Assembly (NCBI GenBank): GCA_964566225.1
Contig: CAZMHV010000002.1
Coordinates: 81,934 to 145,933 of the forward strand
Direction of reading: 5' to 3'
DNA: 64,000 nt
Source of the DNA: an uncultured Gammaproteobacteria bacterium
Lineage (GTDB): Bacteria > Patescibacteriota > Patescibacteriia > Magasanikbacterales > UBA922
Both the position numbers and the translations under genes were made by a program. The stretch's first letter is position 1, and every line of letters begins with the position of its first letter. The notes beneath the pieces were generated by a model, which saw only the letters and a program-made list of their open reading frames with translations, did no database searches and was not told where the DNA came from. This document shows, one piece after another, positions 3-36,552 of this stretch.

Positions 3-956
3 CGTTTTATTTGTGGCACAGAGTCGCAGCACAAAGTTTTGGAACAAAAAGTGAGTGAGTTTCTTGGTACCGAAGATACCATTTTGTATTCATCATGTTT
101 TGATGCCAATGGGGGATTGTTTGAAACCTTGCTTGGTGAAGAAGATGCTATTATTTCGGATAGTCTGAATCATGCGTCTATTATTGATGGAATTCGTTTG
201 TGCAAAGCAGAACGTCATCGTTATGCAAATAGTGACATGAATGAACTCGAAGAAATTTTGAAAAAAACACAAGAAAAAAGATTTCGCATGATTGCCACCG
301 ATGGTGTGTTCAGTATGGATGGCTCTGTTGCAAAGCTCAAAGAAATTTGTGATTTGGCGGACAAGTATGATGCACTGGTGATGGTAGATGATTCACATGC
401 CTCAGGATTCTTGGGTGAACACGGTCGCGGAAGTGTAGAATACTGTGGAGTAGAAGGACGAGTGGATGTGATTACTTCTACCTTTGGAAAAGCACTGGGC
501 GGTGCGAGTGGTGGATTTACGAGTGGCAAAAAACAAATTATTGATTTTTTGCGTCAACGTTCAAGACCGTACTTATTTTCGAATAGTCTCGCACCAGTCA
601 TTGTTGGAACCACGATTGCTATTTTTGACTCGCTTGCTGCCTCACCAGAAAAAATTACGAGTCTCCAAGAAAATGCAAAATATTTTCGTGAAAAAATGAA
701 ATCACTTGGTTTTGAACTGCGTGGTGTTGATCACCCAATTTCACCCGTGATGCTCTATGACGCAAAAGTGGCAGGAGAAATGGCAGCAAAACTTCTCGAA
801 GAAGGAATTTATGTGATTGGTTTTAGTTATCCTGTGGTGCCCCAGGGGCAAGCTCGAATTCGTGTGCAAATTTCGGCAGCGCATTCACGAGAAGATTTAG
901 ATAAATGTATTGGTGCCTTTGAAAAAATTGGAAGAGAGTTAAAAATAATACAATAA
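3..956 (+). CDS. kbl: 2-amino-3-ketobutyrate CoA ligase / 8-amino-7-oxononanoate synthase family (PLP class II aminotransferase), 5' partial
   Basis: Frame is open from the window edge. Translation (…[10 protein letters not shown]…[16 protein letters not shown]…MVDDSHASG…) resembles the Kbl/BioF family. Confidence 0.8.
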
Positions 957-960
957 TTTT

Positions 961-1620
961 ATGTCTTTGAAAGCTGTTATCTTTGATATGGATGGGGTAC
1001 TTATTGATACGGAGCCTGCTTGGCGAGAAGTTGGAGCCAGAATTTATAGTTCTTATGGGGTTCCAATTGTCGCTGAAGATTGTAAACAGACTACAGGTAT
1101 GAGATTGGACGAAGAAGTTTTATATTGGTATAAAAAATTTCCTTGGCAAGGAAAGAATCTTGTAGACGTGGTACAAGAAGTTCAGAATGCCATGATAGAA
1201 GAGATCACCTATAATTCAAAATCTTTGCCCGGAGCTATGCAGGCACTCGATCAAATAAAGAATATGGGGCTTAAAGTTGGTTTGGCATCTTCTTCTGCAG
1301 AGGTTGTAATTAACACAGTATTAAAAAAGTTACAAAGAGAAAATTTTTTTGACGTGGTTTACTCTGCTGAGTTTGAACCTTATGGGAAGCCTCACCCCGC
1401 AGTATATTTAACTACTGCCCAAAAGTTGGGTGTGGATCCCGAGGACTGTATTGCCATCGAAGATTCGCTGAATGGCACAATAGCAGCAAAAGCTGCGAGG
1501 ATGAAGTGTATTACCGTACCAGATGCAGAGAGACGAAATCGAAAAGAATTCGGTATTGCAGATATGGTATTGGATTCACTGGAAGAGTTCAACCAAAATG
1601 TAATAGATGCACTCACTTAA
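961..1620 (+). CDS. HAD-superfamily hydrolase (beta-phosphoglucomutase-like, subfamily IA)
   Basis: N-terminal DMDGVLIDTE motif I and the typical HAD core. Confidence 0.75.
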   Translation: MSLKAVIFDMDGVLIDTEPAWREVGARIYSSYGVPIVAEDCKQTTGMRLDEEVLYWYKKFPWQGKNLVDVVQEVQNAMIEEITYNSKSLPGAMQALDQIKNMGLKVGLASSSAEVVINTVLKKLQRENFFDVVYSAEFEPYGKPHPAVYLTTAQKLGVDPEDCIAIEDSLNGTIAAKAARMKCITVPDAERRNRKEFGIADMVLDSLEEFNQNVIDALT

Positions 1621-1645
1621 TAAATAAATTTTTGACTTTAATTAT

Positions 1646-3466
1646 ATGTGTGGAATTGTTGGTTACATCGGACAAAAAATGGCAACACCTGTTCTTGTGC
1701 AGGGTCTTCGACGACTTGAGTATCGTGGATATGACAGTGCTGGAGTTGCACTTTTGGAAGAAGGTAATTTGCTTCGTATACGATCGGTTGGAAAGATTGA
1801 TGCTCTTTCAGAAAAAATGAAAGGACAAGAATTTAAATCAACGATTGGAATTGCACACACTCGCTGGGCAACGCACGGAGGAGTCACCGAAGAAAATGCA
1901 CATCCACATGTGGCACTCGATGGCAAACTTGTTTTGGTTCACAATGGAATTGTTGAAAATTACCGTGAGCTTCGTGATCAAATGAAACATATTACTTTTG
2001 TTTCACAAACAGATACCGAAGTACTTGCACATTTGGTTGGGGAACATTATAAAGGGAATTTGCGTGAGGCCGTAGAGGCAGCGCTTGCACATGTGCGTGG
2101 GACTTATGGAATTGTGGTGATGCACATGGATGAACCAAATCATTTGGTAGCTGCACGTATGGGGAGTCCAATTGTGGTTGGAGTCGGTGAAAATGAAAAT
2201 TATATTGCGTCAGATGCAACACCAATTTTGGCATACACCAAAAAAGTTATTTTTCTTGATGACGGAGAAATTGCGGATGTGAGTCGTGATGGAGTTGAAA
2301 TTTTTACTCTCAGTGATGTACATGTAGAAAAACTTGTAGAAGAAATTCAATGGGATGAAGGACAAGCACAATTACAAGGATTTCCACATTTCATGCTCAA
2401 AGAAATTTTTGATCAGCCAACCGTATTCAAAGATGCTATTCGTGGAAGATACAATATTGAAGAAAGTACTGCACACCTTGGTGGTCTCAATATGACGGAG
2501 GAAGAAATGCGTCGTGTGAGTCGTGTTATTTTTATTGCGTGTGGAACTGCTTCGTATGCGGGGATGATTGGTAAATATGCATTTGAAAAACTTGCGGGTA
2601 TTCCTGCAGAACTTGATGTTGCGAGTGAGTTTCGATATCGCGACCCAATTATTGACGAAAATACTTTGGTATTTGCTATTTCACAATCTGGTGAAACAGC
2701 AGATACTCTGGCTGCGGTACGTGAGGCCAAACGCAAAGGTGCGTTTGTACGTGGTATTGTGAATGTGGTTGGTTCAACGATTGCTCGTGAAACAGACGGT
2801 GGCACGTATATTCATGCAGGACCAGAGCTTGCTGTGGCTTCTACCAAGGCATATACAAATATGGTCGCCGTAGCAACACTCTATGCACTGCAATTTGGAC
2901 GTGTGCGAAAATTGTCGGCTGCATCGGGCGAAAAAATTGTGAATGCACTTCGTGAAATTTCAGAAAAAATGGAAGCCGTTTTGAAACAAAATGATGCTAT
3001 TAAAGAGTTAGTACAAAAATACAAAGGATGTTCTGATATGTTGTTTTTGGGTCGTGGTATCAATTATCCTGTGGCTCTTGAAGGATCACTCAAACTCAAA
3101 GAAATTTCATATATCCATGCCGAAGCGTATCCAGGTGGAGAAATGAAGCATGGTCCTATTGCCCTGCTTTCACCAGAATTTCCTGTGTTTGCGGTTATGA
3201 CCAAAAACTCTTTGTATGATAAAATGCGTAGTAATATTGAAGAAGTTCGAGCGCGTGGAGCCAAAGTAATTTTGCTTGCTACTGAAGGAGATGACAAGGC
3301 AAAAGAATTGGCCGAAGATGTGATTTATGTTCCCGAAACCATTGAAGTGCTTGAACCATTGGTAAATACTTTGCCACTTCAAATGTTTGCTTATCACATG
3401 GCAGTTGCACTTGGCAAAGATGTGGATAGACCACGAAATTTGGCCAAGAGTGTGACGGTTGAATAA
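1646..3466 (+). CDS. glmS: glutamine--fructose-6-phosphate aminotransferase
   Basis: MCGIVGY N-terminal nucleophile; two SIS domains; 606 aa. Confidence 0.95.
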   Translation: MCGIVGYIGQKMATPVLVQGLRRLEYRGYDSAGVALLEEGNLLRIRSVGKIDALSEKMKGQEFKSTIGIAHTRWATHGGVTEENAHPHVALDGKLVLVHNGIVENYRELRDQMKHITFVSQTDTEVLAHLVGEHYKGNLREAVEAALAHVRGTYGIVVMHMDEPNHLVAARMGSPIVVGVGENENYIASDATPILAYTKKVIFLDDGEIADVSRDGVEIFTLSDVHVEKLVEEIQWDEGQAQLQGFPHFMLKEIFDQPTVFKDAIRGRYNIEESTAHLGGLNMTEEEMRRVSRVIFIACGTASYAGMIGKYAFEKLAGIPAELDVASEFRYRDPIIDENTLVFAISQSGETADTLAAVREAKRKGAFVRGIVNVVGSTIARETDGGTYIHAGPELAVASTKAYTNMVAVATLYALQFGRVRKLSAASGEKIVNALREISEKMEAVLKQNDAIKELVQKYKGCSDMLFLGRGINYPVALEGSLKLKEISYIHAEAYPGGEMKHGPIALLSPEFPVFAVMTKNSLYDKMRSNIEEVRARGAKVILLATEGDDKAKELAEDVIYVPETIEVLEPLVNTLPLQMFAYHMAVALGKDVDRPRNLAKSVTVE

Positions 3467-3499
3467 TCCTTTTGTTATCGCGGTAAAACTTTTTTTAGT

Positions 3500-4468
3500 A
3501 TGAAAAAAATAGTCACAATTGGTGGAGGTGGAGGACACAGCGCTATTGTCCAAGCTTTGAAAGATTTACCCATTGATCTGACTGTTTTGTGTAATACGGT
3601 TGATGATGGAGGTGGAAGTGGAATTTTGGTGCATCAATATGGTGTTCATTCACCTGGAGATTTTCGTCGTGTGGTGACAAGCCTGGCACAAAAAAATGCC
3701 GATGGGTTGAATTATAGATTTGACTCTGGCGTCAATCAAGGTCAGACCGTATTCAATTTGATGCTTGCAGGTCTTGAACTTTCAACTGGTTCTGTGCAGG
3801 GAGCAATTGATACCGTGCGTGATTGGTTTGGAATTGTGCCAATGATTGCGCCTATTACCGAGGGTGTTCCTGTACTCCATGCCAAAACAGTTTCCGGCAA
3901 AGAAATTGTCGGACAATCGAATGTCGTAAAGCATGTGTGGTCACAGCAAGATCCAATTGAACAAATTTTTCTTGAACCCAAAGAAATAAAATTGAGTGAT
4001 GTTGCTCGCACTGCTTTGCATGAAGCAGATTATATTGTTGTATGTATGGGAGATTTGTATAGTAGCATTGCACCTTTTTTTGCCATTGAAGAAGTCAAAC
4101 AAATGTGGTCGAAACTAAGTGCCAAGGTTATTTGGCTTCCAAACGTGGCAGTAACTCCAGGACATGTGCATTATAAAAGTACCTCCCGTGCTCTCAAGTT
4201 TTTGCAATCACTGTCTCCACTTTTTATTCCTGATATGGTTGTAACACATGCCGGTGAAATTTCTGCAGATATAAAAAATGCATTGCAACAAAAAGGGTAT
4301 GGAGTTTCTGAACAAGATATTGTTTCAACTGAACAAACACAGGTTGTTGCAGAACCTTTGATAGAGTCACAAGGTATTGTAAATTCACATGCGGACAACA
4401 TTGAACGCAGCCCAATTTTATATAATATTTCACTCCTGAAAAATATTTTTGAAAAAATAATTGTATGA
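3500..4468 (+). CDS. CofD/YvcK (UPF0052) family protein, gluconeogenesis factor-like
   Basis: KIVTIGGGGGHS glycine-rich N-terminus and DDGGGSG motif typical of the YvcK/CofD family. Confidence 0.6.
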   Translation: MKKIVTIGGGGGHSAIVQALKDLPIDLTVLCNTVDDGGGSGILVHQYGVHSPGDFRRVVTSLAQKNADGLNYRFDSGVNQGQTVFNLMLAGLELSTGSVQGAIDTVRDWFGIVPMIAPITEGVPVLHAKTVSGKEIVGQSNVVKHVWSQQDPIEQIFLEPKEIKLSDVARTALHEADYIVVCMGDLYSSIAPFFAIEEVKQMWSKLSAKVIWLPNVAVTPGHVHYKSTSRALKFLQSLSPLFIPDMVVTHAGEISADIKNALQQKGYGVSEQDIVSTEQTQVVAEPLIESQGIVNSHADNIERSPILYNISLLKNIFEKIIV

Positions 4469-4950
4469 TAAGACGAGCTACGTCACAAGATATTCAAGCT
4501 ATTGCTGACCTCGATAGACTCGGATTTAGTGGTAATCGTCCACCCGGTGTTGCCGAAAAGTGGATTGGCACAAATTTTGCACGAGGTGATCAGTACCAGT
4601 ACTTTGTGTTTGAAAAGGATGGTATGATAGCAGGGTTTATTGCCTGGGAAATAAAAAATGGTTTTGCCCGTGAAGTCCCAATTATTGAACTTGAAAAATT
4701 TGCGGTACATCCAGATTTTCGCGGGCAGGGCATTGGCACAGCGCTCATTGATGAAACTTTTCCTGTCATGAAAGAGTGGATTCACACTTTTTTACCAGAG
4801 GCCAAAGAAATGAGAGTCATTGTCTGGTGTTTGAAAGGAAATGACAAGGCTCTTGAACTGTATAAAAAGATCTGTGGTGATGGTGTGAAAGGTGAAAGAA
4901 GTATTTTTTCAAGTGATGAAGTACTGCTTCGTGGGACATATACTTTATAA
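4465..4950 (+). CDS. GNAT family N-acetyltransferase
   Basis: FAVHPDFRGQGIGTALI acetyl-CoA-binding motif; start overlaps upstream stop (ATGA). Confidence 0.7.
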   Translation: MIRRATSQDIQAIADLDRLGFSGNRPPGVAEKWIGTNFARGDQYQYFVFEKDGMIAGFIAWEIKNGFAREVPIIELEKFAVHPDFRGQGIGTALIDETFPVMKEWIHTFLPEAKEMRVIVWCLKGNDKALELYKKICGDGVKGERSIFSSDEVLLRGTYTL

Positions 4951-4984
4951 CAAAAATTGATTATACTAGAGAAATAAATTTTGA

Positions 4985-5875
4985 GTGTTTTTTATGGAAT
5001 TAAAAATTGTCGCAACGCATCCATCTTTAGATTACGAACTCATTGATTCTGGTGATGGAGAAAAACTTGAACGATACGGAAAATATACATTTCGTCGTCC
5101 AGACCCACAAGCACTGTGGGCAAAAAATGTATCAGCCAAACAATGGAATGAGGCACATTTTTCTTTTCGTCGAGATGGTAAAAAAGGTGATTGGATTGTA
5201 GCGTCTGGTGTAGAAGAACGTTGGCAAATTGCTTTTGGAACATTGAAATTTTGGATTCGTCCAACAGCTTTTAAACATACTGGATTATTTCCTGAACAGT
5301 TGCCAAATTGGGAATGGATGCAAAACGTTATTCGTGCCTCAGACAAAAAAGAAATAAAAGTATTAAATTTGTTTGGTTACACCGGTGGAGCTTCACTTGC
5401 GTGTGCTCAGGCAGGAGCCTCTGTGGTGCATGTGGATGGTTCCAAGGTTGCTATTGGTTGGGGTAAGGACAATGCCGCACTTTCTGGTCTTTCAGAAAAA
5501 CCAATTCGTTGGATACTCGATGATGCTCGTGAATTTGTGCGACGTGAAATTAAACGGGGCAATAAATATGATGGCATTATTCTTGATCCACCAGCTTTTG
5601 GTCATGGGCCAAATAAAGAATTGTGGAAAATTGAAGAACATCTCCCAGAGCTCTTAAAAATGTGTGGTGAAATTTTGTCCGATCAACCTTTGTTTTTTTT
5701 GATTAACGGATACGCCTCTGGATATTCTGCAATTGCTTATGAAAATAATCTTACACCAATGCTTACCAAATTTGGTGGTGATTTTGAAAAAGGTGAACTG
5801 ACTATTGAAGAATCACAAACAGGTAGACTCTTACCATGTGGAATTTTTGCACGATGGAGTAATTCAACTCTATAA
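4985..5875 (+). CDS. class I SAM-dependent methyltransferase (RlmI/Methyltrans_SAM-like, no PUA domain)
   Basis: LNLFGYTGG…VDGS… and DPPAFG motifs resemble the RlmI/RlmK-type rRNA MTase C-terminal domain. Confidence 0.55.
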   Translation: MFFMELKIVATHPSLDYELIDSGDGEKLERYGKYTFRRPDPQALWAKNVSAKQWNEAHFSFRRDGKKGDWIVASGVEERWQIAFGTLKFWIRPTAFKHTGLFPEQLPNWEWMQNVIRASDKKEIKVLNLFGYTGGASLACAQAGASVVHVDGSKVAIGWGKDNAALSGLSEKPIRWILDDAREFVRREIKRGNKYDGIILDPPAFGHGPNKELWKIEEHLPELLKMCGEILSDQPLFFLINGYASGYSAIAYENNLTPMLTKFGGDFEKGELTIEESQTGRLLPCGIFARWSNSTL

Positions 5876-5909
5876 TTATTTTTTATACATAAAGTATAAG
5901 TGTGCTCTT

Positions 5910-6473
5910 ATGAAGAAATCTTTATTGGTTTTGGGTGTTGGAACAATTTTTTTGACAGGTTGTTCCTCGGTAACTCCTATAAAAGAAGTCTCAATGCCAG
6001 TTCAACCACCACAAGAACAAAAACGTATTGAACAAAAAGTAATAACGACAAATTCTATGGAAAATAATATTCAAAATATTGATGCACTCGTTGCTGCAAA
6101 AGAGTTGTATACATACGAGCTTCCTATTGCCAATAGTGTTATCACCAAACGTGAAGTTTCTGGATATCTTGATGCAGAAAAAACTGGAAAAATTTCTAAA
6201 GTTGAAATTGGTATGGGTGAAGTAAAAGATGAATACTATTTTGAAAAAGGTACTTTGGTTTTTCTCCGTACTACTACACAATTTACGGTAGATGGAAAAG
6301 CTGATACTCAAATTCGTGAGATGAGTTTTGAAAATGGAAAAATGGTAAAGCATATGAAAAATGCTCAGGTAGTTACCGATACAAGTAATAACGCATCACT
6401 CGAAGAACAAAGTATTACCGATGCTGCAACACTCTTTGAAGAATTTGAAATGAAAAAAGAATTGAATGGTTAA
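5910..6473 (+). CDS. hypothetical lipoprotein
   Basis: MKKSLLVLGVGTIFLTGCSS signal peptide plus lipobox. The track ORF starts at 5805 but overlaps the upstream gene; the internal ATG at 5910 is in frame. Confidence 0.6.
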   Translation: MKKSLLVLGVGTIFLTGCSSVTPIKEVSMPVQPPQEQKRIEQKVITTNSMENNIQNIDALVAAKELYTYELPIANSVITKREVSGYLDAEKTGKISKVEIGMGEVKDEYYFEKGTLVFLRTTTQFTVDGKADTQIREMSFENGKMVKHMKNAQVVTDTSNNASLEEQSITDAATLFEEFEMKKELNG

Positions 6474-7152
6474 TATGGATTTGCGAGTACTCTACGAAGA
6501 TAATCATATTATTGCTGTGTATAAACCCTCTGGCATGCTCGTGCAGGGGGATCATTCTGGCGACTCAACACTTATGGATGAGGTGAAGTATTATCTCAAA
6601 CAAAAGTATGACAAGCCAGGCAATGTATTTCTCGGCATGGTACACCGCCTTGATCGTCCGGTCAGTGGTATTGTTTTGTTTGCCAAGACGAGCAAGGGGG
6701 CATCGAGACTCTCAGAACAGTTTCGCACACACAGCATTCAAAAAATCTATCATGCACTGGTTTTGGGTACTCCAAAATTGCCCACAGGAACCCTCATAAA
6801 TTACCTCAAAAAGGATGCTGACAAAAATTTTGTACGGGTGTATGATACTCCTACTCCAGATGCGCTCCGGGCTGAGCTGGATTATGAAGTGGTTTCGTCT
6901 CATGGTGGTAGATCGATCTTGAAAGTTGTTCTCAAAACTGGTCGTCCTCACCAAATTCGTTCGCAGCTTGCCCATATTGGGTGTCCTATTGTGGGTGACG
7001 TAAAATATGGTGCTCCAGAAGAACGGGAAGTAACATCACATGGTGAAAAGCATAGTAGTATTTCACTGTGTGCTACCTCGGTTATGTTTAAATTGGCTAC
7101 CCAAGAAGAATATAAATGTATTGAAATTCCCATTCCATCGGAGTGGGGCTAA
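6466..7152 (+). CDS. RluA-family pseudouridine synthase (no S4 domain)
   Basis: HRLDRPVSGIVLFAKT catalytic Asp motif. Confidence 0.8.
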   Translation: MVNMDLRVLYEDNHIIAVYKPSGMLVQGDHSGDSTLMDEVKYYLKQKYDKPGNVFLGMVHRLDRPVSGIVLFAKTSKGASRLSEQFRTHSIQKIYHALVLGTPKLPTGTLINYLKKDADKNFVRVYDTPTPDALRAELDYEVVSSHGGRSILKVVLKTGRPHQIRSQLAHIGCPIVGDVKYGAPEEREVTSHGEKHSSISLCATSVMFKLATQEEYKCIEIPIPSEWG

Positions 7153-7167
7153 CAATTATAGGAGAGT

Positions 7168-7641
7168 ATGTATGTTTCCTCAAAGTTGCGTTTGATGGAA
7201 GAGAATGGTTTTCGTTCTTTAATCTCAGACGGAATTTTTGAATCAAATGAAATAATTTTGAATTTTGAACGAAATTTTGTTGCTGTTCCAGATACTGTGA
7301 CCTTACAAATTGGTGAGAATATGCACCAATTGAGTAGAGATAAAAATGCTTTTGAAAATTTTGTGAATCATAGTTGTGAGCCTACGGCATATATTGATTT
7401 TCAGAATCTTTCTTTGAAAGCCTTCCGAAAAATTGAAATCGGTGAGGTGATAACTTATAATTATTTTACGACAGATTATCATTCAAAAGACATTTTTAAC
7501 TGCAACTGTAGGTCAAAAAAATGTAAAAAAGTTATTAATGGTTTTATGAATCTATCGTATCAAGAAATGCAAGCACTCGAACCATATCTTTCTCCTTTTT
7601 TGAAACAAAAAATGAAAGAGTTGGTATATGCACGAGTATAA
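7168..7641 (+). CDS. SET-domain protein (putative protein-lysine methyltransferase)
   Basis: NHSCEPT signature, an EVITYNY-type Tyr motif and a post-SET Cys cluster CNCRSKKC. Confidence 0.7.
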   Translation: MYVSSKLRLMEENGFRSLISDGIFESNEIILNFERNFVAVPDTVTLQIGENMHQLSRDKNAFENFVNHSCEPTAYIDFQNLSLKAFRKIEIGEVITYNYFTTDYHSKDIFNCNCRSKKCKKVINGFMNLSYQEMQALEPYLSPFLKQKMKELVYARV

Positions 7642-7671
7642 AATTCTATTTTGTAATTGTATTGACATGTT

Positions 7672-8862
7672 ATGAACTTGTACGAATTTGAAGGAAAAAA
7701 TATTTTTGAAAAATATGGAATAAAAATTCCACGTGGTGTGGTGGTGCGCCGCGATGATAATTTTATTGCCAAATATAGTGAACTTGGACTCACTGATGTT
7801 GTTGTGAAAGCACAAGTTCTTTCTGGAAAGCGTGGCAAGGGCGGGGGAATTAAGTTTGCTTCATCAGACGAAGAAGTACAAAAGGCCTGTGCTGAAATTT
7901 TTGCCATGGAAATTCGAGGGCAGTATGTGGCGGCTATTCGTATTGAAGAAAAATTATCAATTGCGGAAGAACACTATCTTTCTATTACGTACGATACAAA
8001 TCGTAAACAGCCAGTTTTGATTTACAGTCGTGATGGGGGAATGGATATTGAAGATGTCCCTGAAGAAAAAATTGTAAAACAAAATTTGGATATTCAAAAA
8101 GAAATGATTGAAAGTGAAATTCCTTTTGCACAAAATTTGTGGAATTGTTTTTTGAAAGAAGATACACGGGTGGTGGAAATTAATCCACTCGTGAAAACAA
8201 CTTCGGGTGAGTGGATCGCCGCAGATGCCAAAATTGCGATCGATGATGATGCATTTTACAGGCATGAAGACTGGAAAGCTTTGGAGCCTCGTACTATGAT
8301 GGGACGACTCCCAACTGATCGTGAAAATGATGCCAAAAAAATTGATGAAGGGGAAGCGTATTATCGTGGAACCGCAGGAAAATATATTGAAATGGATGGC
8401 AATATCGCTATTCTCTTTTCTGGTGGTGGTGCGAGTATTGCCAATATGGATGCCCTCATGAAAGCCGGTCTTACCCCTGCCAATTACACAGAATATTCAG
8501 GAAATCCTCCTCGTGAAAAAGTCCATGCACTTGCCAAGGTGGTTCTGAGTAAACCAGGTCTTCAGGGCCTGTGGATTGCCGGAGGTGTGGCAAATTTTAC
8601 CAATGTATCAGAAACCTTTCATGGAATTGTTGATGCACTTGATGAATTGAAACCAACCTATCCAATTGTGGTGCGACGTGCAGGACCATTTGAAAAAGAG
8701 GGAATGGAATTGATGAAAGAATGTGCAAAAAGAAATAATTTACACATGAAATTTTTTGGGAAAGAAACGTCAATGAGTGATACTGCTGAAATTTTGGCAA
8801 AAGCAGTAAAAGAAAGTATTCCTTTTGAACAATCCGATGAATGGCCTATTTATTGGCCATAA
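7672..8862 (+). CDS. sucC: succinyl-CoA synthetase beta-subunit-like ATP-grasp protein (alternatively AclB / citryl-CoA synthetase large subunit)
   Basis: MNLYEFEGKNIFEKYGI N-terminus; ATP-grasp plus CoA-ligase domain; 396 aa. Confidence 0.75.
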   Translation: MNLYEFEGKNIFEKYGIKIPRGVVVRRDDNFIAKYSELGLTDVVVKAQVLSGKRGKGGGIKFASSDEEVQKACAEIFAMEIRGQYVAAIRIEEKLSIAEEHYLSITYDTNRKQPVLIYSRDGGMDIEDVPEEKIVKQNLDIQKEMIESEIPFAQNLWNCFLKEDTRVVEINPLVKTTSGEWIAADAKIAIDDDAFYRHEDWKALEPRTMMGRLPTDRENDAKKIDEGEAYYRGTAGKYIEMDGNIAILFSGGGASIANMDALMKAGLTPANYTEYSGNPPREKVHALAKVVLSKPGLQGLWIAGGVANFTNVSETFHGIVDALDELKPTYPIVVRRAGPFEKEGMELMKECAKRNNLHMKFFGKETSMSDTAEILAKAVKESIPFEQSDEWPIYWP

Positions 8863-8880
8863 TTGTAATAAATTTGTTGT

Positions 8881-9396
8881 ATGAAAAAATATTTTCTTAT
8901 TCTTTTGTTTTTTGTGGGAGTGACACTGAGTATATTTTTTGGTGTTCGTTTTCAAAAAGAAAATGCTGTTACACGCGTAGAAAATCAAGAACTCTTTGAA
9001 CAAATTTTGATGAATCCTTTTGCCGGAGGAGTAAGTGATATTCAAGGATTTAAAAACCAAAAAGGAAAGTCTGATACATATTTTAAATTTCGTGTTACGA
9101 ATGAACAAAAAGAAGTATTGTTGAAGCTGCATGAATATAAAAAAATCGACTGTACCAATGAAGCCGTGTTGTCAAAGTTGCTTGCACCAGAAAAAACAAA
9201 AAACATTGTAGAAGGATCAACTTCTTTTTGGAATGTAAGTGAAGTTGAAAATAAAGTTTGTTATGCAACTTTTTTGTTCACTGCATCTGGAATTGAAGGA
9301 AGGTTGTATTCAAATAATTTGAGACAACGCGCACAAAGTGAGATGGTAATTGACGAAAAAAATAACGTGGTGTATTTTCATGAATCAGGAATATAA
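8881..9396 (+). CDS. hypothetical membrane-anchored protein
   Basis: N-terminal TM helix; no recognisable motif; sits between the sucC-like and sucD-like genes. Confidence 0.4.
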   Translation: MKKYFLILLFFVGVTLSIFFGVRFQKENAVTRVENQELFEQILMNPFAGGVSDIQGFKNQKGKSDTYFKFRVTNEQKEVLLKLHEYKKIDCTNEAVLSKLLAPEKTKNIVEGSTSFWNVSEVENKVCYATFLFTASGIEGRLYSNNLRQRAQSEMVIDEKNNVVYFHESGI

Positions 9397-9405
9397 AAAT
9401 TTTGT

Positions 9406-10302
9406 ATGTCTATTTTGCTCCAACCCAATACACAAGTACTTATCCAGGGGATGACTGGTAAAGAAGGTCAAAAAGCAGCGAAAGCTATGCTGGATTATGG
9501 CACACAAGTAGTATGTGGTGTCACTCCCAATAAAGGTGGACAAGAAGTCGAAGGAAGGCCTATTTTTAACTCTGTGGGTGAGGCAAAAGCTCAATTTCCA
9601 GAATTATCTGTGTCTGCCGTATATGTGCCTCCCTTTGCTGCCAAGGCTGCAATTTTGGAAGCCATTGAAAATGATATAAAACTTATCAATATTATTGTTG
9701 AGCGGATTCCTATCCAAGATACGGCGTACTGTTTGGCGGCGGCACGTGAACGTGGTGTACAAATTTTAGGACCAAGTTCACTTGGGTTTATGATTCCGGG
9801 GGTAGGCCGCATTGGTGTCGTCGGTGGACCACTTGAATTGGCCAATCAAGTATTTCAATCTGGGAGCATTGGTGTCATTTCTCGCTCTGGTGGCATGACC
9901 AATGAAATTTCTTGGCAAATTCGCAAAGCAGGCATGGGCCAAAGTGCTGCCGTGCATGTGGGAGGGGACTTACTCATGGGAACCACTTATGCAGATTTAC
10001 TTCGTTTATTTGAAAAAGATGATGCCACGAAAGGTGTTGTGCTTTTTGGTGAACATGGGGGAAGTTATGAATTTGAAATTGTAGAAGCGATTCAAAAGAA
10101 AGAATATACGAAGCCACTTGCGATTTATATTGGTGGCAAGTTTGCCAACTCTTTGCCCGAGGGTATGAATATTGGTCATGCTGGAGCGATTGTGGAGCGG
10201 GGCAAGGGTGCTGCAGAAAAAGAGAAGGCGCTCAGTGATGTTGGTGTTATGATTGCAGAGCGATATGAAGATTTAGTTACTTTAATTCAACCCTTTGCTT
10301 AA
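9406..10302 (+). CDS. sucD: succinyl-CoA synthetase alpha-subunit-like CoA-binding protein
   Basis: CoA-binding Rossmann N-terminus (LIQGMTGKEGQ) and a His-loop region. Confidence 0.75.
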   Translation: MSILLQPNTQVLIQGMTGKEGQKAAKAMLDYGTQVVCGVTPNKGGQEVEGRPIFNSVGEAKAQFPELSVSAVYVPPFAAKAAILEAIENDIKLINIIVERIPIQDTAYCLAAARERGVQILGPSSLGFMIPGVGRIGVVGGPLELANQVFQSGSIGVISRSGGMTNEISWQIRKAGMGQSAAVHVGGDLLMGTTYADLLRLFEKDDATKGVVLFGEHGGSYEFEIVEAIQKKEYTKPLAIYIGGKFANSLPEGMNIGHAGAIVERGKGAAEKEKALSDVGVMIAERYEDLVTLIQPFA

Positions 10303-11041
10303 TTGTATGCATTTTAAAACCGCAATCACTCACATCACTGATGATGGAAAGGAAATTATTCGTGGAAATAATTTTGATGAGCTCATTGAACACAAAACAT
10401 TTTCAGAAGTAATTTTTTTATTGCTGATGGGAAAACTACCGAATGAAAAAGAATTGAACATGATAAATGCATTTTTGGTTGCAGCCATTGATCATGGTCC
10501 TGGCACTGCTTCTGCGCTCACGGCTCGCATATCTGCATCGAGTAAAAATAGCATGCATACTTCACTCGCTGCAGGCCTTCTCGGGTTGGGTGAACGTCAT
10601 GGACTTGCCATCGAAGGAGCCATGAAATTTTTTCAAGAAAATATTGGTGCAGCTGATCTTGCATCACTCCTCAAACAAATGAAAGAACAAAAAAAGTATG
10701 CACCTGGATTTGGACACAGAATTTTATCGGTTGATAATCGAGCAAATACATTACTCGATATTGCCAAGAAAAATAATTTTTTTGGAAAACACTGTGAGTT
10801 TGCTCTGCAGGTACGTGACGAACTCAACAAAATTTCTTCAAAACCACTTCCCATAAATATTGATGGGGCTATGGGGGCGATTTTGTGCGACATGGGTGTG
10901 GATTCACGTTTGTCCAAGGGGATCTTTATGATTTCTCGTGTGCCAGGCTTGGTGGCACAAATTTACGAAGAAATGTGTAGTGACGAGGGACTCAGACGAC
11001 TCGAAAGTGATGAGATTGAATATATCGGTAAAGGACTGTAA
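10295..11041 (+). CDS. citrate synthase-like domain protein (citryl-CoA lyase / ATP-citrate-lyase C-terminal-domain-like)
   Basis: GFGHRIL (the GFGHRVY counterpart), LGERHG, and NIDGAMGAIL…SRVPGLVAQ match the catalytic C-terminal half of citrate synthase. Confidence 0.65.
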   Translation: MLNCMHFKTAITHITDDGKEIIRGNNFDELIEHKTFSEVIFLLLMGKLPNEKELNMINAFLVAAIDHGPGTASALTARISASSKNSMHTSLAAGLLGLGERHGLAIEGAMKFFQENIGAADLASLLKQMKEQKKYAPGFGHRILSVDNRANTLLDIAKKNNFFGKHCEFALQVRDELNKISSKPLPINIDGAMGAILCDMGVDSRLSKGIFMISRVPGLVAQIYEEMCSDEGLRRLESDEIEYIGKGL

Positions 11042-11052
11042 AATACATATAT

Positions 11053-11571
11053 ATGGATATTCTTTCACATGGCCTGTGGGGTGGCGCAGCCTTTGGTCGC
11101 AAAACAAAAAAGAGTTTTTGGCTGGCCTTTGGATTTGGTGTGGCACCAGATCTATTTTCGTTTGGGATTTTTACAGCCATGAATGTGCTTGGTTTTGTGT
11201 CTGGCCCAGATTGGTCAAATGGCCCACCGAGTAATGAAAGTATCCCTGCATACGTCCATAGTCTGTATAATGTCACTCACAGTTTGGTCATTTTTTCTAT
11301 AATTTTTCTCGTTGTGTGGCTACTACGCAAAAAGCCATTGTACGAAATGCTTGCGTGGCCACTCCATATATTGTTGGACATTCCTACTCACTCTACTCGT
11401 TTTTTTGCCACACCATTTTTGTGGCCCATCACGAGTTATAAAATAGATGGGGTACCTTGGTCAAATCCTTGGATTTTTTTTCCTGATTGGATATTGCTTT
11501 TTGTAGTCTATGGGTATTTGTGGTACCAAAAGAAAAAGCGAATGCAGTCTAAAAAGGAAAAAACTTCGTAA
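11053..11571 (+). CDS. membrane-bound metal-dependent hydrolase-like protein (YdjM/DUF457-like)
   Basis: MDILSHGLWGGA… start and polytopic hydrophobic profile. Confidence 0.45.
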   Translation: MDILSHGLWGGAAFGRKTKKSFWLAFGFGVAPDLFSFGIFTAMNVLGFVSGPDWSNGPPSNESIPAYVHSLYNVTHSLVIFSIIFLVVWLLRKKPLYEMLAWPLHILLDIPTHSTRFFATPFLWPITSYKIDGVPWSNPWIFFPDWILLFVVYGYLWYQKKKRMQSKKEKTS

Positions 11572-11715
11572 GATTGACATTTTCAGGATTTTGTGATATT
11601 TCTACTTGTGCGTGTGGGGAAATATTTGGTATTTTTTCCCATACACTCTCTGTGCAAATCGGTCAGCAACACAAGTTTGCGGCCGATTCTTTTTTCTCTC
11701 GTTTTTTGAATATAT

Positions 11716-12963
11716 ATGAACCAAAAACCATTTGAAGTCATGTCTCCCGCAGGGTCATGGGAAACGCTCAATGCTGCCATCAAAGGTGGCGCTGATTCAG
11801 TGTACTTTGGCATTGAACAGCTCAACATGCGTGCTCGCGCAGCCAACAATTTTAAAATTTCTGAACTTGGTGAAATTGTACGTCACTGTAGTGATCACAA
11901 TGTCAAAACGTATCTTACTCTCAACACCATTTTATATGATCACGATATTCCTCTCATGAAAAAAATTTGTGACGAGGCCAAAAAGGCTGGTGTGACCGCA
12001 GCGATTACCTGTGATCTCGCTGGAATTATGTATGCGCATTCGATTGGTCTTGAAGTACATATTTCTACACAGCAAAATATTAGTAACATTGAACAAGTAA
12101 AATTTTTTGCACAGTATGCAGATGTTGTGGTGCTCGCGCGTGAACTCACACTCAAACAAATTCAGTATATTTGTGACGAAATTAAAAAACAAGACATTCG
12201 CGGACCAAAAGGAAATTTGGTAGAAGTAGAAATTTTTGTACATGGTGCTTTGTGTGTTGCCATCTCGGGTAAATGTCACATGAGTTTAGCCACACAAAAT
12301 GCCTCGGCCAATCGTGGTGCCTGCATTCAAAATTGTCGTCGTGCATATCGTGTGATTGACGAAGAAACCGGTGATGAACTCGTGCTTGAAAATAAATATG
12401 TCATGTCTCCAAAAGATTTGTGTACGGTTGGATTTCTGGATCAACTCTTGAAAGCGGGAGTGCGAGTACTCAAAATTGAAGGCCGGGGCAAATCTGCTGA
12501 TTATGTGTATACCGTTACAAAAGTATACAAAGAAGCAGGAGAGGCAGTTTTGAACGGAACTTTTACCAAAGAAAAAGTAGATGAATGGATGACACTTTTG
12601 GGCACGGTGCACAACCGTGGTTTTTGGGAAGGTGGATATTATCTTGGCAAAAAACTTGGTGAATGGAGTGGAAATTATGGTTCACAAGCCACCAAAGAAA
12701 AAATTTGTATTGGTGTTGGTCAAGGATATTTTGAAAAAACAAAAATTGGAGAGTTCCGCATGGACAGTGGCGAACTCAAACGTGGTGATGAAATTTGGAT
12801 TACGGGCAAGACTACAGGAATTATTCAAACCACAGTCAAAGACTTGTATGTTGATGGTGTTCCAGCAGAAAAAGCCATGAAGGGAGACATTATCACCATG
12901 CCAATTGATGAAAAAATTCGTAAGAGTGATAAATTATTTTTAGTGGTATCAAAACATGCCTAA
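11716..12963 (+). CDS. peptidase U32 family protein (collagenase-like)
   Basis: EIFVHGALCVAISGKCHMS U32 signature. Confidence 0.85.
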   Translation: MNQKPFEVMSPAGSWETLNAAIKGGADSVYFGIEQLNMRARAANNFKISELGEIVRHCSDHNVKTYLTLNTILYDHDIPLMKKICDEAKKAGVTAAITCDLAGIMYAHSIGLEVHISTQQNISNIEQVKFFAQYADVVVLARELTLKQIQYICDEIKKQDIRGPKGNLVEVEIFVHGALCVAISGKCHMSLATQNASANRGACIQNCRRAYRVIDEETGDELVLENKYVMSPKDLCTVGFLDQLLKAGVRVLKIEGRGKSADYVYTVTKVYKEAGEAVLNGTFTKEKVDEWMTLLGTVHNRGFWEGGYYLGKKLGEWSGNYGSQATKEKICIGVGQGYFEKTKIGEFRMDSGELKRGDEIWITGKTTGIIQTTVKDLYVDGVPAEKAMKGDIITMPIDEKIRKSDKLFLVVSKHA

Positions 12964-13576: not shown

Positions 13577-14848
13577 ATGCAAAAAATCCTTGATCTTCAT
13601 ATTCATTCTCGTTACTCACGTGCTTGTTCACAGTCTCTGAACTTGCAGAACATTGCTGCAGCATGTGAATTGCGAGGCATCGACATCGTCACCACCGGGG
13701 ATTTTACGCATCCAAAGTGGTTTGAAAGCATTCACAATGAATTGGTTGAAGATACGGCAGGAATATATAAGTTAAAGAATAATTCGAGTAAAACACGATT
13801 TCTTATTGGCACTGAAGTTGCGTCCATCAAAAAACATAAAGACAAAACACGTCGTGTCCATCATTTGCTTTTTGCACCAACTATTGATGTTGCTCAAAAA
13901 TTCAATGCATATCTCACAAATAGGGGATGTAACTTGAAAGCAGACGGTCGTCCCATACTCGGACTCACGTCCAAAGAGATTCTCGAAGTCATGCTGAGCA
14001 TCGACGAACGCATGGTAATGATCCCTGCACATGCGTGGACGCCCTGGTTTGGTATTTTTGGTTCCAAAGGTGGCTACAACACGCTTGAAGAAGCCTACGA
14101 TGAATTGACACCTTACATTAACGCAATTGAAACAGGACTCTCGAGTGATCCACTCATGAATTGGCGATTGTCGCAGCTCGACAACATTACACTTATTTCC
14201 AATTCAGATGCACACAGTCCACAAAAACTCGGACGCGAGGCCAATATATTGCAATTTGAAAATGAAAAAGAAATAACATATGCCGAGATTATGCGTGTGA
14301 TTCGTGAAGGAGACAAAAAGAAATTTGTTTCGACCATTGAATTTTATCCCGAAGAAGGCAAGTATCATGTTGATGGTCATGCCCTGTGTAATTTTTGGTG
14401 CACACCAGAAGAAACAAAAAAACACAAAGGTATTTGCCCTGTGTGCAAAAAACAGCTCGTCATTGGAGTTATGAATCGTGTGGCAGAGTTGGCAGATAGA
14501 ACAGAGCTGCATGCACGTCAAGCTGCGCGTATTCCATACCAAAGTATTGTGCCACTGCCCGAGATTATTGCAGATGTACTTGGTGTTGGTGTGGCAAGTA
14601 AGGCCGTGCAAAAACAGTATGCACAACTTTTGCAAACACTTGGCAATGAATTTCATATTTTACTTGAAGTTTCACCCAAAGAAATTGAAAAGGCGAGTAC
14701 ACCACAGATTGCTGAGGCGGTGCAGCGTGTGCGCAGTGGAAATATTTATATTCGGCCAGGGTACGATGGTGTATTTGGTGTGGTAAAAGTATTTCAAGAT
14801 GATGAAGAACGTAAAAAACAAAAACAACTTGGGATTGAACTTGAATAA
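13577..14848 (+). CDS. PHP-domain nuclease-like protein (TIGR00375 / endonuclease Q-like) with C-terminal Zn-ribbon
   Basis: LDLHIHSRYSRA PHP metal-binding N-terminus; C-x2-C…C-x2-C (CNFWC…CPVC). Confidence 0.5.
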   Translation: MQKILDLHIHSRYSRACSQSLNLQNIAAACELRGIDIVTTGDFTHPKWFESIHNELVEDTAGIYKLKNNSSKTRFLIGTEVASIKKHKDKTRRVHHLLFAPTIDVAQKFNAYLTNRGCNLKADGRPILGLTSKEILEVMLSIDERMVMIPAHAWTPWFGIFGSKGGYNTLEEAYDELTPYINAIETGLSSDPLMNWRLSQLDNITLISNSDAHSPQKLGREANILQFENEKEITYAEIMRVIREGDKKKFVSTIEFYPEEGKYHVDGHALCNFWCTPEETKKHKGICPVCKKQLVIGVMNRVAELADRTELHARQAARIPYQSIVPLPEIIADVLGVGVASKAVQKQYAQLLQTLGNEFHILLEVSPKEIEKASTPQIAEAVQRVRSGNIYIRPGYDGVFGVVKVFQDDEERKKQKQLGIELE

Positions 14849-27463: not shown

Positions 27464-28657
27464 ATGGTAATTTCTTCTTTGAAACAATTAAAAAATATAA
27501 AAGGAAAAAGAGTACTGGTCCGCGTAGATTTTAACGTTCCACTCAAAAATAAAAAAATTACTGATAATTCTCGCATCAAATCAAGTGGTCTGACTTTAAA
27601 CTACCTTCGAAAAATGGGTGCCAAAGTTATTGTCGTCACTCATTTGGGGAGGCCTGAGGGAAAGGTTGTTCCAGAGTTTTCTCTCAAACCTCTTGTCAAA
27701 GAGCTCTCAAAAATTTTGACTGGTATGAAAGAAAAACCAATCAAAATCAAACTCGTTGAATTGAATACAAAAACATCTGGAGTTGTTGAAAAAATGAAAG
27801 CAGGAGATATGGTCATGCTCGAAAATATTCGCTTTCATCAGGGTGAAGAAAAAAATGATCCTGCCTTTGCCAAAGAGCTTGCCTCACTGGCTGACCTATT
27901 TGTGCTTGATGGCTTTGCTGTAGCACATCGCAGTGCTGCCTCTGTCTCTGGTGTTGCCCGCTACCTTCCTGCATATGCCGGATTTTTGCTCTCACAAGAA
28001 ATTAATCAGCTTGACAAACTTCTTGATAAACCCAAAAAACCTTTTGTGGCTATTATTGGTGGAGCCAAAATTGAAACCAAACTTCCTGTGGTAAAAAATA
28101 TTTTAAAAAAGGCAAGTACGGTTCTTTTGGGAGGTGCCATTGTCAATACCTATTGGCAAACCAAAGGATATGGTGTTGGAAGTTCTCTTGTTGACCAAGG
28201 GGTTGAAAAAAAATCATTGACTGCACTCACCCAAAAACAAGTTATTCTTCCGCTTGACGTTATTGTTGGAGACATTCTTGGAAAAAAAATTCGTGTTGTC
28301 GATATACAAAAAAAGCCCCACGCCATTTGTTCTGCCGGAGAAGCAATTTTGGATATTGGACCTGCAACGGTTGAATTGTTTACCAAATATATTACAAAGG
28401 CCAAGACGGTTGTGTGGAACGGTGCTATGGGATACTTTGAAGTGTCTGCTTTTGCTACAGGAACTTTTGAAGTGGCACGAGCGGTGGCGGGTCAAAGACG
28501 TCTGTTTACTCTCGTTGGTGGGGGTGAAACACTGCTTGTCATGGATACACTCAAACAACCCTCTCAAAATTATATTACTTCTACTGGTGGGGGAGCTATG
28601 CTCGAATATTTGTCTGGAGTCAAACTTCCTGGTGTTGTTGTGTGTCAAAAAAAATAA
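27464..28657 (+). CDS. pgk: phosphoglycerate kinase
   Basis: GKRVLVRVDFNVP N-terminus. The track ORF start at 27398 is likely an extension. Confidence 0.95.
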   Translation: MVISSLKQLKNIKGKRVLVRVDFNVPLKNKKITDNSRIKSSGLTLNYLRKMGAKVIVVTHLGRPEGKVVPEFSLKPLVKELSKILTGMKEKPIKIKLVELNTKTSGVVEKMKAGDMVMLENIRFHQGEEKNDPAFAKELASLADLFVLDGFAVAHRSAASVSGVARYLPAYAGFLLSQEINQLDKLLDKPKKPFVAIIGGAKIETKLPVVKNILKKASTVLLGGAIVNTYWQTKGYGVGSSLVDQGVEKKSLTALTQKQVILPLDVIVGDILGKKIRVVDIQKKPHAICSAGEAILDIGPATVELFTKYITKAKTVVWNGAMGYFEVSAFATGTFEVARAVAGQRRLFTLVGGGETLLVMDTLKQPSQNYITSTGGGAMLEYLSGVKLPGVVVCQKK

Positions 28658-28686
28658 AAAGTGTTATACTACACTTATGTCATGAC

Positions 28687-29826: not shown

Positions 29827-29832
29827 AAACAT

Positions 29833-35527: not shown

Positions 35528-35701
35528 AGTAAAAAAATTGCTAGAAATAGCAATTTTTTTTATTTTGTAGACTTATTTGACTTGACAGAAGCATAAAGCT
35601 GTGATATTTTCTGTTATTGCTTTGGTTTGTACCTATGCATGACCAATGGTGGCCGTGCATAGTGCGAACGAAACGCGATAACTGCTGAGTGAGGTAATCA
35701 G

Positions 35702-36415
35702 ATGCTTCAGGAATTTTTGAAGAATGTCGAACTGTTGTTCATGGGGCGTGTCCCCATGGTCCTGGTCTACTACCTGTGCCCCCTGCAGGCCTATGACGCC
35801 AAGAAGGCCGAATGGCTCTGCTCTGAGCGGGGCTACAAGTCGGACTTCGGCCCGAACGCCAAGCTCATCACGGTGCTCCAGGGTTTCAACGTCTTCCTGT
35901 ACGTCACCAATCCGGGACGTCTCATCACGCAGCTGCGCGGGTTCCCCCTCGTGGCCGCGTCGGATCTCAACAAGCAGGGGCGCCCCGTGAGCATGGTGAA
36001 GTTTGGCCAGCACATCGAGGTCGGCGTTCGCCCGTTGATTCCTGCATCCGCAGCAGAGATCAGCGCCGACGTCGAGGCTGCCTTCGACTCCACCCATGAG
36101 CCGCCCCATGAGTTGTCTCTCGATGAACTCTTTGACGTCGACGATGGTGGTGATCCTCCGTCCTTGGCAGACCACCCGATCGACACCACCCTCGGTGGGA
36201 TGGGGGAGCTCAGTGACATCACCAGTGTGCGACGCACCCTGGGTCAGGACTTCTCCGGGGGCGACGAAATCTCGGCCTTCGACAATCCCCCGGGCACTCA
36301 GCCCGTCATCGACTTGTCGGCGATCGGGGTGTCCCACGAGGATCCCGCCGCTTCGGTGGAGGTCGAGCTCGAGTCTCTGGTCGGAGAGAATGGGGGTTCC
36401 CGTCCAGGGGACTGA
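35702..36415 (+). CDS. hypothetical protein (high-GC island gene 1)
   Basis: Plus-frame GC3 ~80% identifies this as the coding frame, not the overlapping 35633..36484 minus ORF; acidic disordered C-terminus. Confidence 0.5.
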   Translation: MLQEFLKNVELLFMGRVPMVLVYYLCPLQAYDAKKAEWLCSERGYKSDFGPNAKLITVLQGFNVFLYVTNPGRLITQLRGFPLVAASDLNKQGRPVSMVKFGQHIEVGVRPLIPASAAEISADVEAAFDSTHEPPHELSLDELFDVDDGGDPPSLADHPIDTTLGGMGELSDITSVRRTLGQDFSGGDEISAFDNPPGTQPVIDLSAIGVSHEDPAASVEVELESLVGENGGSRPGD

Positions 36416-36483
36416 CCTGTTCACGACCTCTCCGAGGTCACCAGTGAGCCGCGCCTCAATAAGAGAGGTCGCACGCACGCTCA

Positions 36484-36547: not shown

Positions 36548-36552
36548 TGAAA

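Follow-up and report, generated by a model that had tools for sequence, protein, structure and literature searches.

What use could a small-genome bacterium that belongs to the candidate phyla radiation (CPR), with no tricarboxylic acid (TCA) cycle in view, have for the parts of a citrate-cleaving enzyme? The question is raised by a 64,000-nucleotide stretch of contig CAZMHV010000002.1 (assembly GCA_964566225.1, positions 81,934 to 145,933), here called the window, in which four open reading frames (ORFs) from the window's ORF list lie on the + strand, co-directional and tightly spaced, at positions 7672-11041. A reading made without database searches (the sequence-only reading) had seen in them a sucC-like gene, a sucD-like gene and a stand-alone citrate synthase domain, and had proposed either a split ATP-citrate lyase (ACL) or the combination of citryl-CoA synthetase (CCS; subunits CcsA and CcsB) and a separate citryl-CoA lyase (CCL; the protein Ccl). 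The four ORFs are there, as are the three motifs that it had picked out (GFGHRIL, LGERHG and NIDGAMGAIL), and of its two proposals the second stands while the first gives way before the lyase model, the trees and the matches in the PDB. Judged by comparison with known proteins, the three enzyme genes make up a predicted CCS/CCL system rather than a fused ACL or a SucCD pair beside part of a citrate synthase; this assignment is drawn from PDB matches, a lyase model that scores above its cutoff, conserved residues, shared indels and bootstrapped trees. The four features are as follows.

7672-8862, + strand: ccsA-like gene, predicted large (beta-type) subunit of citryl-CoA synthetase, 396 amino acids, N-terminal ATP-grasp and C-terminal citrate-binding domain.
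8881-9396, + strand: ORF171, a lineage-specific inserted gene, 171 amino acids, whose product has a single hydrophobic helix at its N-terminus (a signal anchor or a signal peptide).
9406-10302, + strand: ccsB-like gene, predicted small (alpha-type) subunit of citryl-CoA synthetase, 298 amino acids, CoA-binding Rossmann domain and phospho-histidine loop.
10307-11041, + strand: ccl, predicted citryl-CoA lyase, 244 amino acids from ATG 10307, a stand-alone citrate-synthase fold.

The last of these genes had been described as the catalytic C-terminal half of citrate synthase, and Pfam agrees: Citrate_synt matches its product at 4e-42 over profile positions 169-353 of 357, that is, over the C-terminal part only. 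The NCBIfam model for citryl-CoA lyase (NF004869) gives 241.7 bits against a curated cutoff of 212, whereas with the models for citrate synthase and methylcitrate synthase the protein scores far under every cutoff. It does match the citrate synthase family, and a failure to do so would, by the sequence-only reading's own account, have refuted the proposal. The top match in the PDB is Ccl of Hydrogenobacter thermophilus (6hxp_A, 9.8e-57), with which it aligns end to end (residues 6-246 of 268); the AclA lyase module, as the family next in line, follows at 3e-20. Identity is 43-45% to the Ccl proteins of Aquificae, 27% to the AclA lyase module and 28% to Escherichia coli GltA. The N-terminal region of citrate synthase is lacking, and the length falls within the range of stand-alone lyases (about 240-270 amino acids). 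With a small reference set, CPR lyases and the two Ccl proteins of Aquificae formed one group in 100% of 300 neighbour-joining bootstraps (supports, here and below, being direct counts of bipartitions). The active site of E. coli GltA comprises H229, H264, H305, R314, D362, F383, R387 and R407 (PMC13147460); all eight are kept in the window protein, as H63, H98, H137, R145, D186, F207, R211 and R231, and are invariant across 15 orthologues, while AclA of Chlorobium has phenylalanine at the position of H98. The activity predicted from all this is the cleavage of (3S)-citryl-CoA to acetyl-CoA and oxaloacetate.

One detail of the gene has had to be revised. It had been read as a 248-residue protein from a TTG codon (10295-11041), a start that overlaps the end of ccsB. 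An exact database look-up with that version found no entry; the identical database protein has 244 amino acids, and the orthologues begin MxFKT, so that ATG 10307 is most likely the true start.

The small subunit matches CoA_binding (5e-22) and Ligase_CoA (5e-11) in Pfam, and the phospho-histidine loop to be expected in a SucD-like protein of this kind is present as GHAGA at residues 257-261, which makes His258 the predicted phosphorylated residue. The assignment within the wider family is less simple. In phmmer searches of the PDB, two archaeal SucD proteins come first (243 and 237 bits), followed by CcsB (6hxq_A, 221 bits) and by bacterial and mitochondrial SucD proteins (194 bits or less), but the score with the NCBIfam equivalog model for SucD (NF004230) is 279 bits, under the cutoff of 336. 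The small subunit has a pair of indels in common with CcsB, as well as the motifs GPSSLG, SRSGG and GGSYE, whereas GPNCPG (or something close to it) and S(R/K)SGT stand in each of the six SucD references; in 100% of bootstraps the CPR protein was grouped with H. thermophilus CcsB.

In the large subunit, Pfam recognizes ATP-grasp_2 (7e-43) and Citrate_bind (PF16114, 1e-30); Ligase_CoA was not found in it by the same scan. Its ATP-grasp part aligns with residues 1-138 of CcsA. With the NCBIfam equivalog model for SucC (NF001913) it reaches 255 bits, under the cutoff of 370, and its top match in the PDB is CcsA of H. thermophilus (6hxq_B, 1e-62), followed by SucC (1.6e-47) and AclB (1.5e-42); scored as whole proteins, CcsA gives 215 bits and AclB 149. 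When the C-terminal domain is taken alone, CcsA reaches 99 bits, AclB 78 and human ACLY 68, and every SucC 55 or less, so that for the substrate domain all citrate-specific enzymes in the PDB rank above all SucC proteins. This domain carries the motifs EYSG (274-277), ANFTNV (307-312) and VRRAGP (334-339), in which G277, N308-F309-T310 and R336 align with G309, N346-F347-T348 and R379 of human ACLY, residues that we take to be citrate contacts (the numbering was checked on the alignment). The equivalent motifs of SucC are DVGGG, NIFGGIVRCD and VRLEGN. Thus the citrate-binding residues that matter for the proposal are in place in the SucC-like protein (G277, N308, T310 and R336), and in neighbour-joining trees of the substrate domain every bootstrap (100%) set both SucC references apart from all the citrate enzymes. 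With SucC separated in this way, and with the small subunit joined to CcsB, the two synthetase genes do not fall firmly inside the succinyl-CoA synthetases, an outcome that, together with a third gene unrelated to the citrate synthase fold, would have counted against the sequence-only reading.

Related loci came from an alignment-based metagenome scan (80 loci, 70 of them non-redundant) and from individual look-ups; a scan of genome contigs with a single protein gave two loci. The look-ups found the trio in relatives whose lyases are 56-76% identical to that of the window. Gene order is uniform: ccsB lies immediately 5' of ccl in 39 of 39 loci, ccsA and ccsB lie 5' of ccl and collinear with it in 29 of 29, and in all 46 loci having both ccsB and ccl the two are unfused (with more than 300 bp between them in 11). 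Median identities to the window proteins are 67% for CcsA, 73% for CcsB and 55% for Ccl; GlmS from the same loci gives 70.5%, a comparable value, from which the two synthetase subunits appear about as constrained as a housekeeping enzyme. With E-values of 1e-30 to 1e-80 and a matching arrangement in dozens of independent assemblies, the cluster is not a product of chance.

How does this cluster compare with systems already known? CCS and CCL have been reported in Aquificaceae, including H. thermophilus (PDB 6HXQ, 6HXP), and in Leptospirillum. The H. thermophilus proteins are like those of the window in their three-protein architecture, domain content, and catalytic and substrate residues, but they belong to a thermophilic autotroph, whereas the cluster has a small-genome, presumably fermentative CPR host with no reverse-TCA genes in view. 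There are differences in structure too: CcsA has 429 amino acids in H. thermophilus and 396 here, CcsB has 353 and 298 (the CPR form being without the C-terminal extension), and the CPR citrate motifs are of the ACL type, where H. thermophilus CcsA has DIGG and ANNTRI. Overall, identities between the CPR clade and the characterized enzymes of Aquificae reach only 38-45%, and the CPR trio forms one collinear cluster, whereas in the Aquificaceae reference locus ccl has no ccsAB within 13 kb. From ACL (Chlorobium limicola AclB/AclA, PDB 6HXJ, and human ACLY) the cluster differs in another way. The overall reaction, the domain set and the domain order are the same, and EYSG and ANFTNV of the large subunit are identical to those of human ACLY; but the CoA-binding and lyase modules that are fused in AclA are here separate ORFs, divided by a stop codon and a 4-nt gap, and the CPR lyase groups apart from the AclA module and keeps the histidine that AclA has replaced. 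With SucC and SucD (of E. coli, Thermus thermophilus and archaea) the CPR CcsAB proteins have in common the fold family and the phospho-histidine mechanism; the small subunit and E. coli SucD are 42% identical, and archaeal SucD stands at the top of the small subunit's scores, but the substrate domain of the large subunit is only 25% identical to E. coli SucC and has GGVANFTN in place of NIFGGIVRCD. The lyase, finally, has the catalytic core and the eight active-site residues of E. coli GltA, but neither the N-terminal part of GltA nor its internal segment of about 115 residues.

That such genes occur in this part of the bacterial tree had been seen before: according to a 2022 preprint, sequences from CPR and DPANN that carry annotations as succinyl-CoA synthetase or citrate synthase are monophyletic with CCS or CCL (10.1101/2022.10.25.513756), and the JGI and NCBI pipelines name the third enzyme gene of many relatives 'citryl-CoA lyase'. 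A literature search that included Patescibacteria, DPANN and Magasanikbacteria found no paper on the function, gene order or neighbourhood of CCS/CCL in CPR. We therefore regard the cluster as a familiar enzyme system whose host and genetic setting are unusual, and not as a new kind of system; what is modestly new is the collinear, ACL-like order combined with ACL-type citrate motifs, the linkage to genes for GlmS, a GlmR-like protein and a GNAT acetyltransferase, and the liability of the gene junctions to insertion.

The host and its neighbouring genes bear on what the enzymes might do. The host is a Magasanikbacteria-like CPR bacterium: nearly every relative of the lyase that bears a name comes from Candidatus Magasanikbacteria or Patescibacteria, one genome locus being from a named metagenome-assembled genome (MAG) of Magasanikbacteria, and the content of the window is of a small-genome type (ribosomal protein S2, elongation factor EF-Ts, glyceraldehyde-3-phosphate dehydrogenase, phosphoglycerate kinase, GroEL, UvrA, YidC, glycosyltransferases and RNase P RNA). 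When 38 ORFs of the window (nearly all those of more than 230 amino acids) were compared with Pfam, no other TCA gene was found among them: no aconitase, isocitrate dehydrogenase, 2-oxoglutarate:ferredoxin oxidoreductase, fumarate reductase or other enzyme of the cycle. Nor were such enzymes found in the flanks of the related loci that we examined. According to a study of freshwater CPR bacteria, CPR genomes do not encode the enzymes of the Krebs cycle; the study describes the class ABY1, to which Magasanikbacteria belong, as fermentative, without mention of citrate (PMC9166423). The seeming lack of a TCA cycle that had made the cluster look out of place thus holds for the window as it does for the CPR literature.

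Upstream of the trio, the window has a series of genes in the order Kbl, HAD phosphatase (HxpB-like), GlmS, YvcK/GlmR-like protein and GNAT (39-4950), of which the following enter into the argument.

39-956, + strand: kbl-like gene, glycine C-acetyltransferase (2-amino-3-ketobutyrate CoA ligase); NCBIfam NF005394, 516 bits, cutoff 460.
1646-3466, + strand: glmS, glutamine--fructose-6-phosphate transaminase; NCBIfam TIGR01135, 787 bits, cutoff 418.
3500-4468, + strand: CofD-family protein, YvcK/GlmR-like; Pfam CofD, 3e-47.
4465-4950, + strand: small GNAT acetyltransferase, an acetyl-CoA user; Pfam Acetyltransf_1, 1e-14.

Of the 24 related loci that extend 6 kb or more upstream, 22 have a GNAT gene upstream of the trio; in 18 of 29 loci it is the labelled gene that comes immediately before ccsA, within 150 bp in 14 of these 18. 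A YvcK-like gene is upstream in 21 of 24 related loci, and glmS in 19 of the 21 that have at least 8.5 kb of upstream sequence. Kbl, which aligns to positions 92-397 of its profile (its 5' end is probably outside the window), also lies 5' of glmS in locus L005 (such numbers are our own labels) and in three metagenome loci. The YvcK-like protein scores 162 bits, under the cutoff of 196, with TIGR01826, 'UDP-N-acetylglucosamine-binding protein YvcK'. In Bacillus, GlmR regulates GlmS. As for the GNAT, we considered a glucosamine-6-phosphate N-acetyltransferase of the GNA1 type and found no support for it: there was only a weak RimI-like match in NCBIfam and one marginal match in the PDB.

Two observations may be set beside these counts. 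The block from Kbl through the HAD phosphatase, GlmS and YvcK/GlmR to the GNAT is conserved in the window, in L005, L008 and L011, and in many of L014-L086, and two of its products, Kbl and the GNAT, handle acetyl-CoA.

We can now return to the question of use. The reading that we favour, at a probability of roughly three in four, is that the cluster specifies a two-enzyme, ATP-dependent cleavage of citrate of the CCS/CCL type, operating most likely outside any TCA or reverse-TCA cycle and turning scavenged citrate into acetyl-CoA and oxaloacetate. In CcsA, the ATP-grasp domain would bind ATP and the C-terminal domain citrate; ATP would phosphorylate His258 of CcsB, from which the phosphoryl group would pass to the citrate held by CcsA; CoA bound to CcsB would then displace the phosphate to give citryl-CoA; and the separate Ccl, using the His/His/Asp machinery of citrate synthase, would split this into acetyl-CoA and oxaloacetate. 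The citrate would presumably be taken up from outside the cell, and the acetyl-CoA may be consumed in acetylation reactions, as is suggested by the conserved linkage to the GNAT, GlmS and GlmR-like genes. The acetylated compounds might be amino sugars or other envelope components, but for amino sugars this is speculative, since no similarity of the GNAT to known glucosamine-phosphate acetyltransferases could be detected.

Several considerations weigh against this. The substrate and the direction are carried over to CPR from homologous enzymes. The energetics of cleavage (-5.9 +/- 3.9 kJ/mol for CCS and -2.1 +/- 3.9 kJ/mol for CCL; PMC13147460 Table 1) put the reaction close to equilibrium, so that the reverse direction is feasible, and the presence of Kbl in the block weakens the case for citrate as the only source of acetyl-CoA, since Kbl could supply it too. 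The conserved neighbourhood could be mere synteny inherited within one CPR class, from which all the related loci probably come, and the searches of NCBIfam and the PDB detected no similarity of the GNAT to glucosamine-6-phosphate N-acetyltransferases. The gene inventory covers 64 kb of a genome. The trees contain few references, transcribed from PDB alignments, and were made by neighbour-joining only; for the substrate domain of the large subunit their bootstraps are divided, 55% placing the CPR proteins with CcsA and 44% with ACL.

That division leads directly to the alternative that survives best, though we think it unlikely: that the three proteins are a non-covalently split ACL, a single ACL-like holoenzyme in which citryl-CoA is channelled. 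The gene order agrees, ccsA-ccsB-ccl corresponding to aclB followed by aclA (AclA being CcsB fused to a lyase module); only 4 nt separate ccsB from ccl in the window, and the citrate motifs that match human ACLY, together with the minority of bootstraps just mentioned, point the same way. But other evidence divides the proteins from ACL: the lyase goes with the stand-alone lyases, and not with the AclA module, in 100% of bootstraps and has His98 where AclA has phenylalanine, and the small subunit is as consistently grouped with CcsB. Moreover, the spacers between ccsB and ccl in 11 of the 46 loci contain unrelated genes of 0.45-1.2 kb, so that there is no apparent pressure toward fusion or coupling.

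It is quite unlikely, in our view, that the system runs the other way, with Ccl condensing acetyl-CoA and oxaloacetate and CcsAB converting the citryl-CoA to citrate with the formation of ATP, in effect an ATP-conserving replacement for citrate synthase; the acetyl-CoA would be supplied, for example, by threonine via Kbl, or by pyruvate. ACL is said to act as such a replacement in Desulfobacter postgatei (reportedly described by Moeller and co-workers in 1987 in Arch Microbiol). Besides the near-equilibrium energetics and the possible acetyl-CoA producer in the same conserved block, this idea draws on the dependence of CPR bacteria, as fermenters, on substrate-level phosphorylation (PMC9166423), and on the full catalytic set of citrate synthase in Ccl, including the histidine that is replaced in Chlorobium AclA. 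It would, however, need stoichiometric oxaloacetate, when simpler ATP-yielding routes from acetyl-CoA require no co-substrate. Cleavage is favoured by two arguments: citrate made in this way would have nowhere to go should aconitase and isocitrate dehydrogenase be absent, as reported for CPR, and the trio's tight linkage with GlmS, the GlmR-like protein and a GNAT that consumes acetyl-CoA fits supply better than disposal.

A further alternative, very unlikely in our judgement, keeps the chemistry but changes the acid, to 2-methylcitrate, homocitrate or another hydroxy-polycarboxylate, so that the products would not be acetyl-CoA and oxaloacetate. Sequence comparison is what the assignment of the CPR members rests on, at the rather low identities to characterized enzymes given above, and 2-methylcitrate synthases have the same fold as the lyase and appear among its weaker matches; but the large subunit does not differ from human ACLY in its citrate-contact residues, the lyase has the complete citrate synthase active site, and the methylcitrate synthase models are among those with which it scores far below cutoff. 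Least of all do we credit an ordinary SucCD pair beside a truncated or degenerate citrate synthase, an idea suggested by NCBIfam, in which both synthetase subunits have succinate--CoA ligase (beta and alpha) as their highest-scoring name, and by the archaeal SucD proteins heading the PDB matches of the small subunit, and hardly credible when both models score under their curated cutoffs, the substrate domain is of the ACL citrate-binding type and separates from both SucC references, the small subunit has the indels and motifs of CcsB and not those of SucD, and the lyase is full-length against H. thermophilus Ccl, above the curated lyase cutoff and invariant at its catalytic positions.

If citrate cleavage is indeed what the cluster performs, then citrate joins the metabolites scavenged by reduced and probably host-dependent cells, and there is an explanation of how these obtain acetyl-CoA and oxaloacetate. 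The finding also matters to metagenome surveys, which commonly use genes for CCS/CCL as markers for carbon fixation by the reverse TCA cycle: a conserved and apparently functional cluster in a CPR lineage without a visible TCA cycle implies that calls of autotrophy from these markers would be wrong for the clade. The chemistry of the enzymes, as it is known, is unaffected. We would go further only tentatively, to a possibility that we consider well short of probable: that in this non-autotrophic, non-cyclic role CCS/CCL takes citrate from a host or the environment and provides oxaloacetate and the main supply of acetyl-CoA for acetylation linked to GlmS, GlmR and the GNAT (in particular, of amino sugars of the cell envelope), and that the unfused cluster is a surviving stage of ACL evolution before the fusion. 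Its collinear, unfused order with ACL-like motifs does bear on models in which ACL arose by fusion of CCS and CCL.

What, then, is the gene that interrupts the cluster? It had been taken for an unrelated insert, and this holds: ORF171 has no family match in Pfam or NCBIfam, its cluster at 90% identity has two members only, and its one hydrophobic segment is N-terminal (Kyte-Doolittle maximum 2.48, confined to residues 4-22). Its G+C content is 0.314, against 0.395-0.44 for the flanking genes. At the ccsA-ccsB junction, ORF171 is missing from L005 and L008, and L010 and L011 have unrelated ORFs there; in 11 of 35 loci this junction exceeds 300 bp. Taken over the metagenome loci, 28 junction ORFs, same-strand for the most part, divide into 25 groups unrelated to one another, and include two NUDIX proteins, a HAD-like protein, two secreted proteins with CARDB domains, a weakly MFS-like permease, and several orphans with an N-terminal hydrophobic helix, to which last type ORF171 belongs. 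Since both junctions often hold ORFs that are unrelated from locus to locus, ORF171 is cargo at an insertion-tolerant junction and not an enzyme subunit. A conserved accessory subunit was considered for the inserted ORFs as a whole and rejected, on the number of groups (25 for 28 ORFs), on the mixed nature of their Pfam matches (NUDIX, HAD-like, CARDB and a weak MFS), and because ORF171 is not similar to what L010, L011 and L003 have at that position.

Inserted ORFs of this kind were seen at 4407-6088 in L010, at 5544-5960 in L011, and at junctions in L017-L088. A NUDIX hydrolase occupies the ccsA-ccsB junction in two loci, L011 and L045. In L054, a multi-pass membrane protein of 400 amino acids lies between ccsB and ccl; it has a weak match to MFS_1 (1e-7, below the cutoff) and is a candidate carboxylate or citrate permease.

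The gaps in the window cluster, from ccsA through ORF171 and ccsB to ccl, are of 18, 9 and 4 nt (counting ccl from ATG 10307), a spacing that suggests an operon. Scans of 4300-12000 for promoter consensus sequences (31 promoter-like sites against 21 +/- 4.8 expected) and for terminator-like sites (4 against 5.2) were not informative, and a Shine-Dalgarno-like purine run was not found before ccsA, ORF171, ccsB or ccl (7642-7671, 8863-8880, 9397-9405 and 10303-10306). A TAATTGT-like string is present just 5' of three of the four start codons. The gene directly 5' of ccsA (7168-7641), by contrast, has GGAGAG upstream; it encodes a 157-residue SET-domain protein (Pfam SET, 1.3e-6), is low in G+C (0.31), and is not at this position in more distant relatives.

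Beyond ccl, a 423-residue ORF (13577-14848) has no Pfam match at 1e-4, and relatives of it lie 3' of ccl in 22 of 35 loci. The copy in L008 (GCA_035473115.1, DATION010000005.1, 189 kb) scores 177 bits with TIGR00375, under the cutoff of 327, and has a precomputed Pfam assignment to MJ0043_C. The gene order in this locus is GlmS-HAD-CofD-GNAT-ccsA-ccsB-ccl-TIGR00375, a neighbourhood of the CPR type, although its lyase is named as coming from 'Candidatus Udaeobacter sp.' (Verrucomicrobiota); this label could reflect taxonomic misassignment of the MAG or an event of transfer.

Elsewhere in the window, a GC-rich island at 35700-38200 (0.55-0.65, against about 0.39 elsewhere) contains ORFs at 35633-36484 (- strand) and 36676-38139 (+ strand; 487 amino acids, no Pfam match) and adjoins the RNase P RNA gene (38240-38659, - strand); the island may have been acquired horizontally. 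At 28642-32186, a 394-residue ORF without a family match, a 415-residue ThiF-family protein and, on the opposite strand, a 369-residue nitroreductase-like protein make up a set that resembles a cluster for peptide modification (azole-forming). From 55602 to 64000, a single open frame of at least 2,799 codons, which ORF lists requiring a stop codon miss, runs past the end of the window; its apparently giant product seems to have an N-terminal hydrophobic segment and is probably a surface protein.

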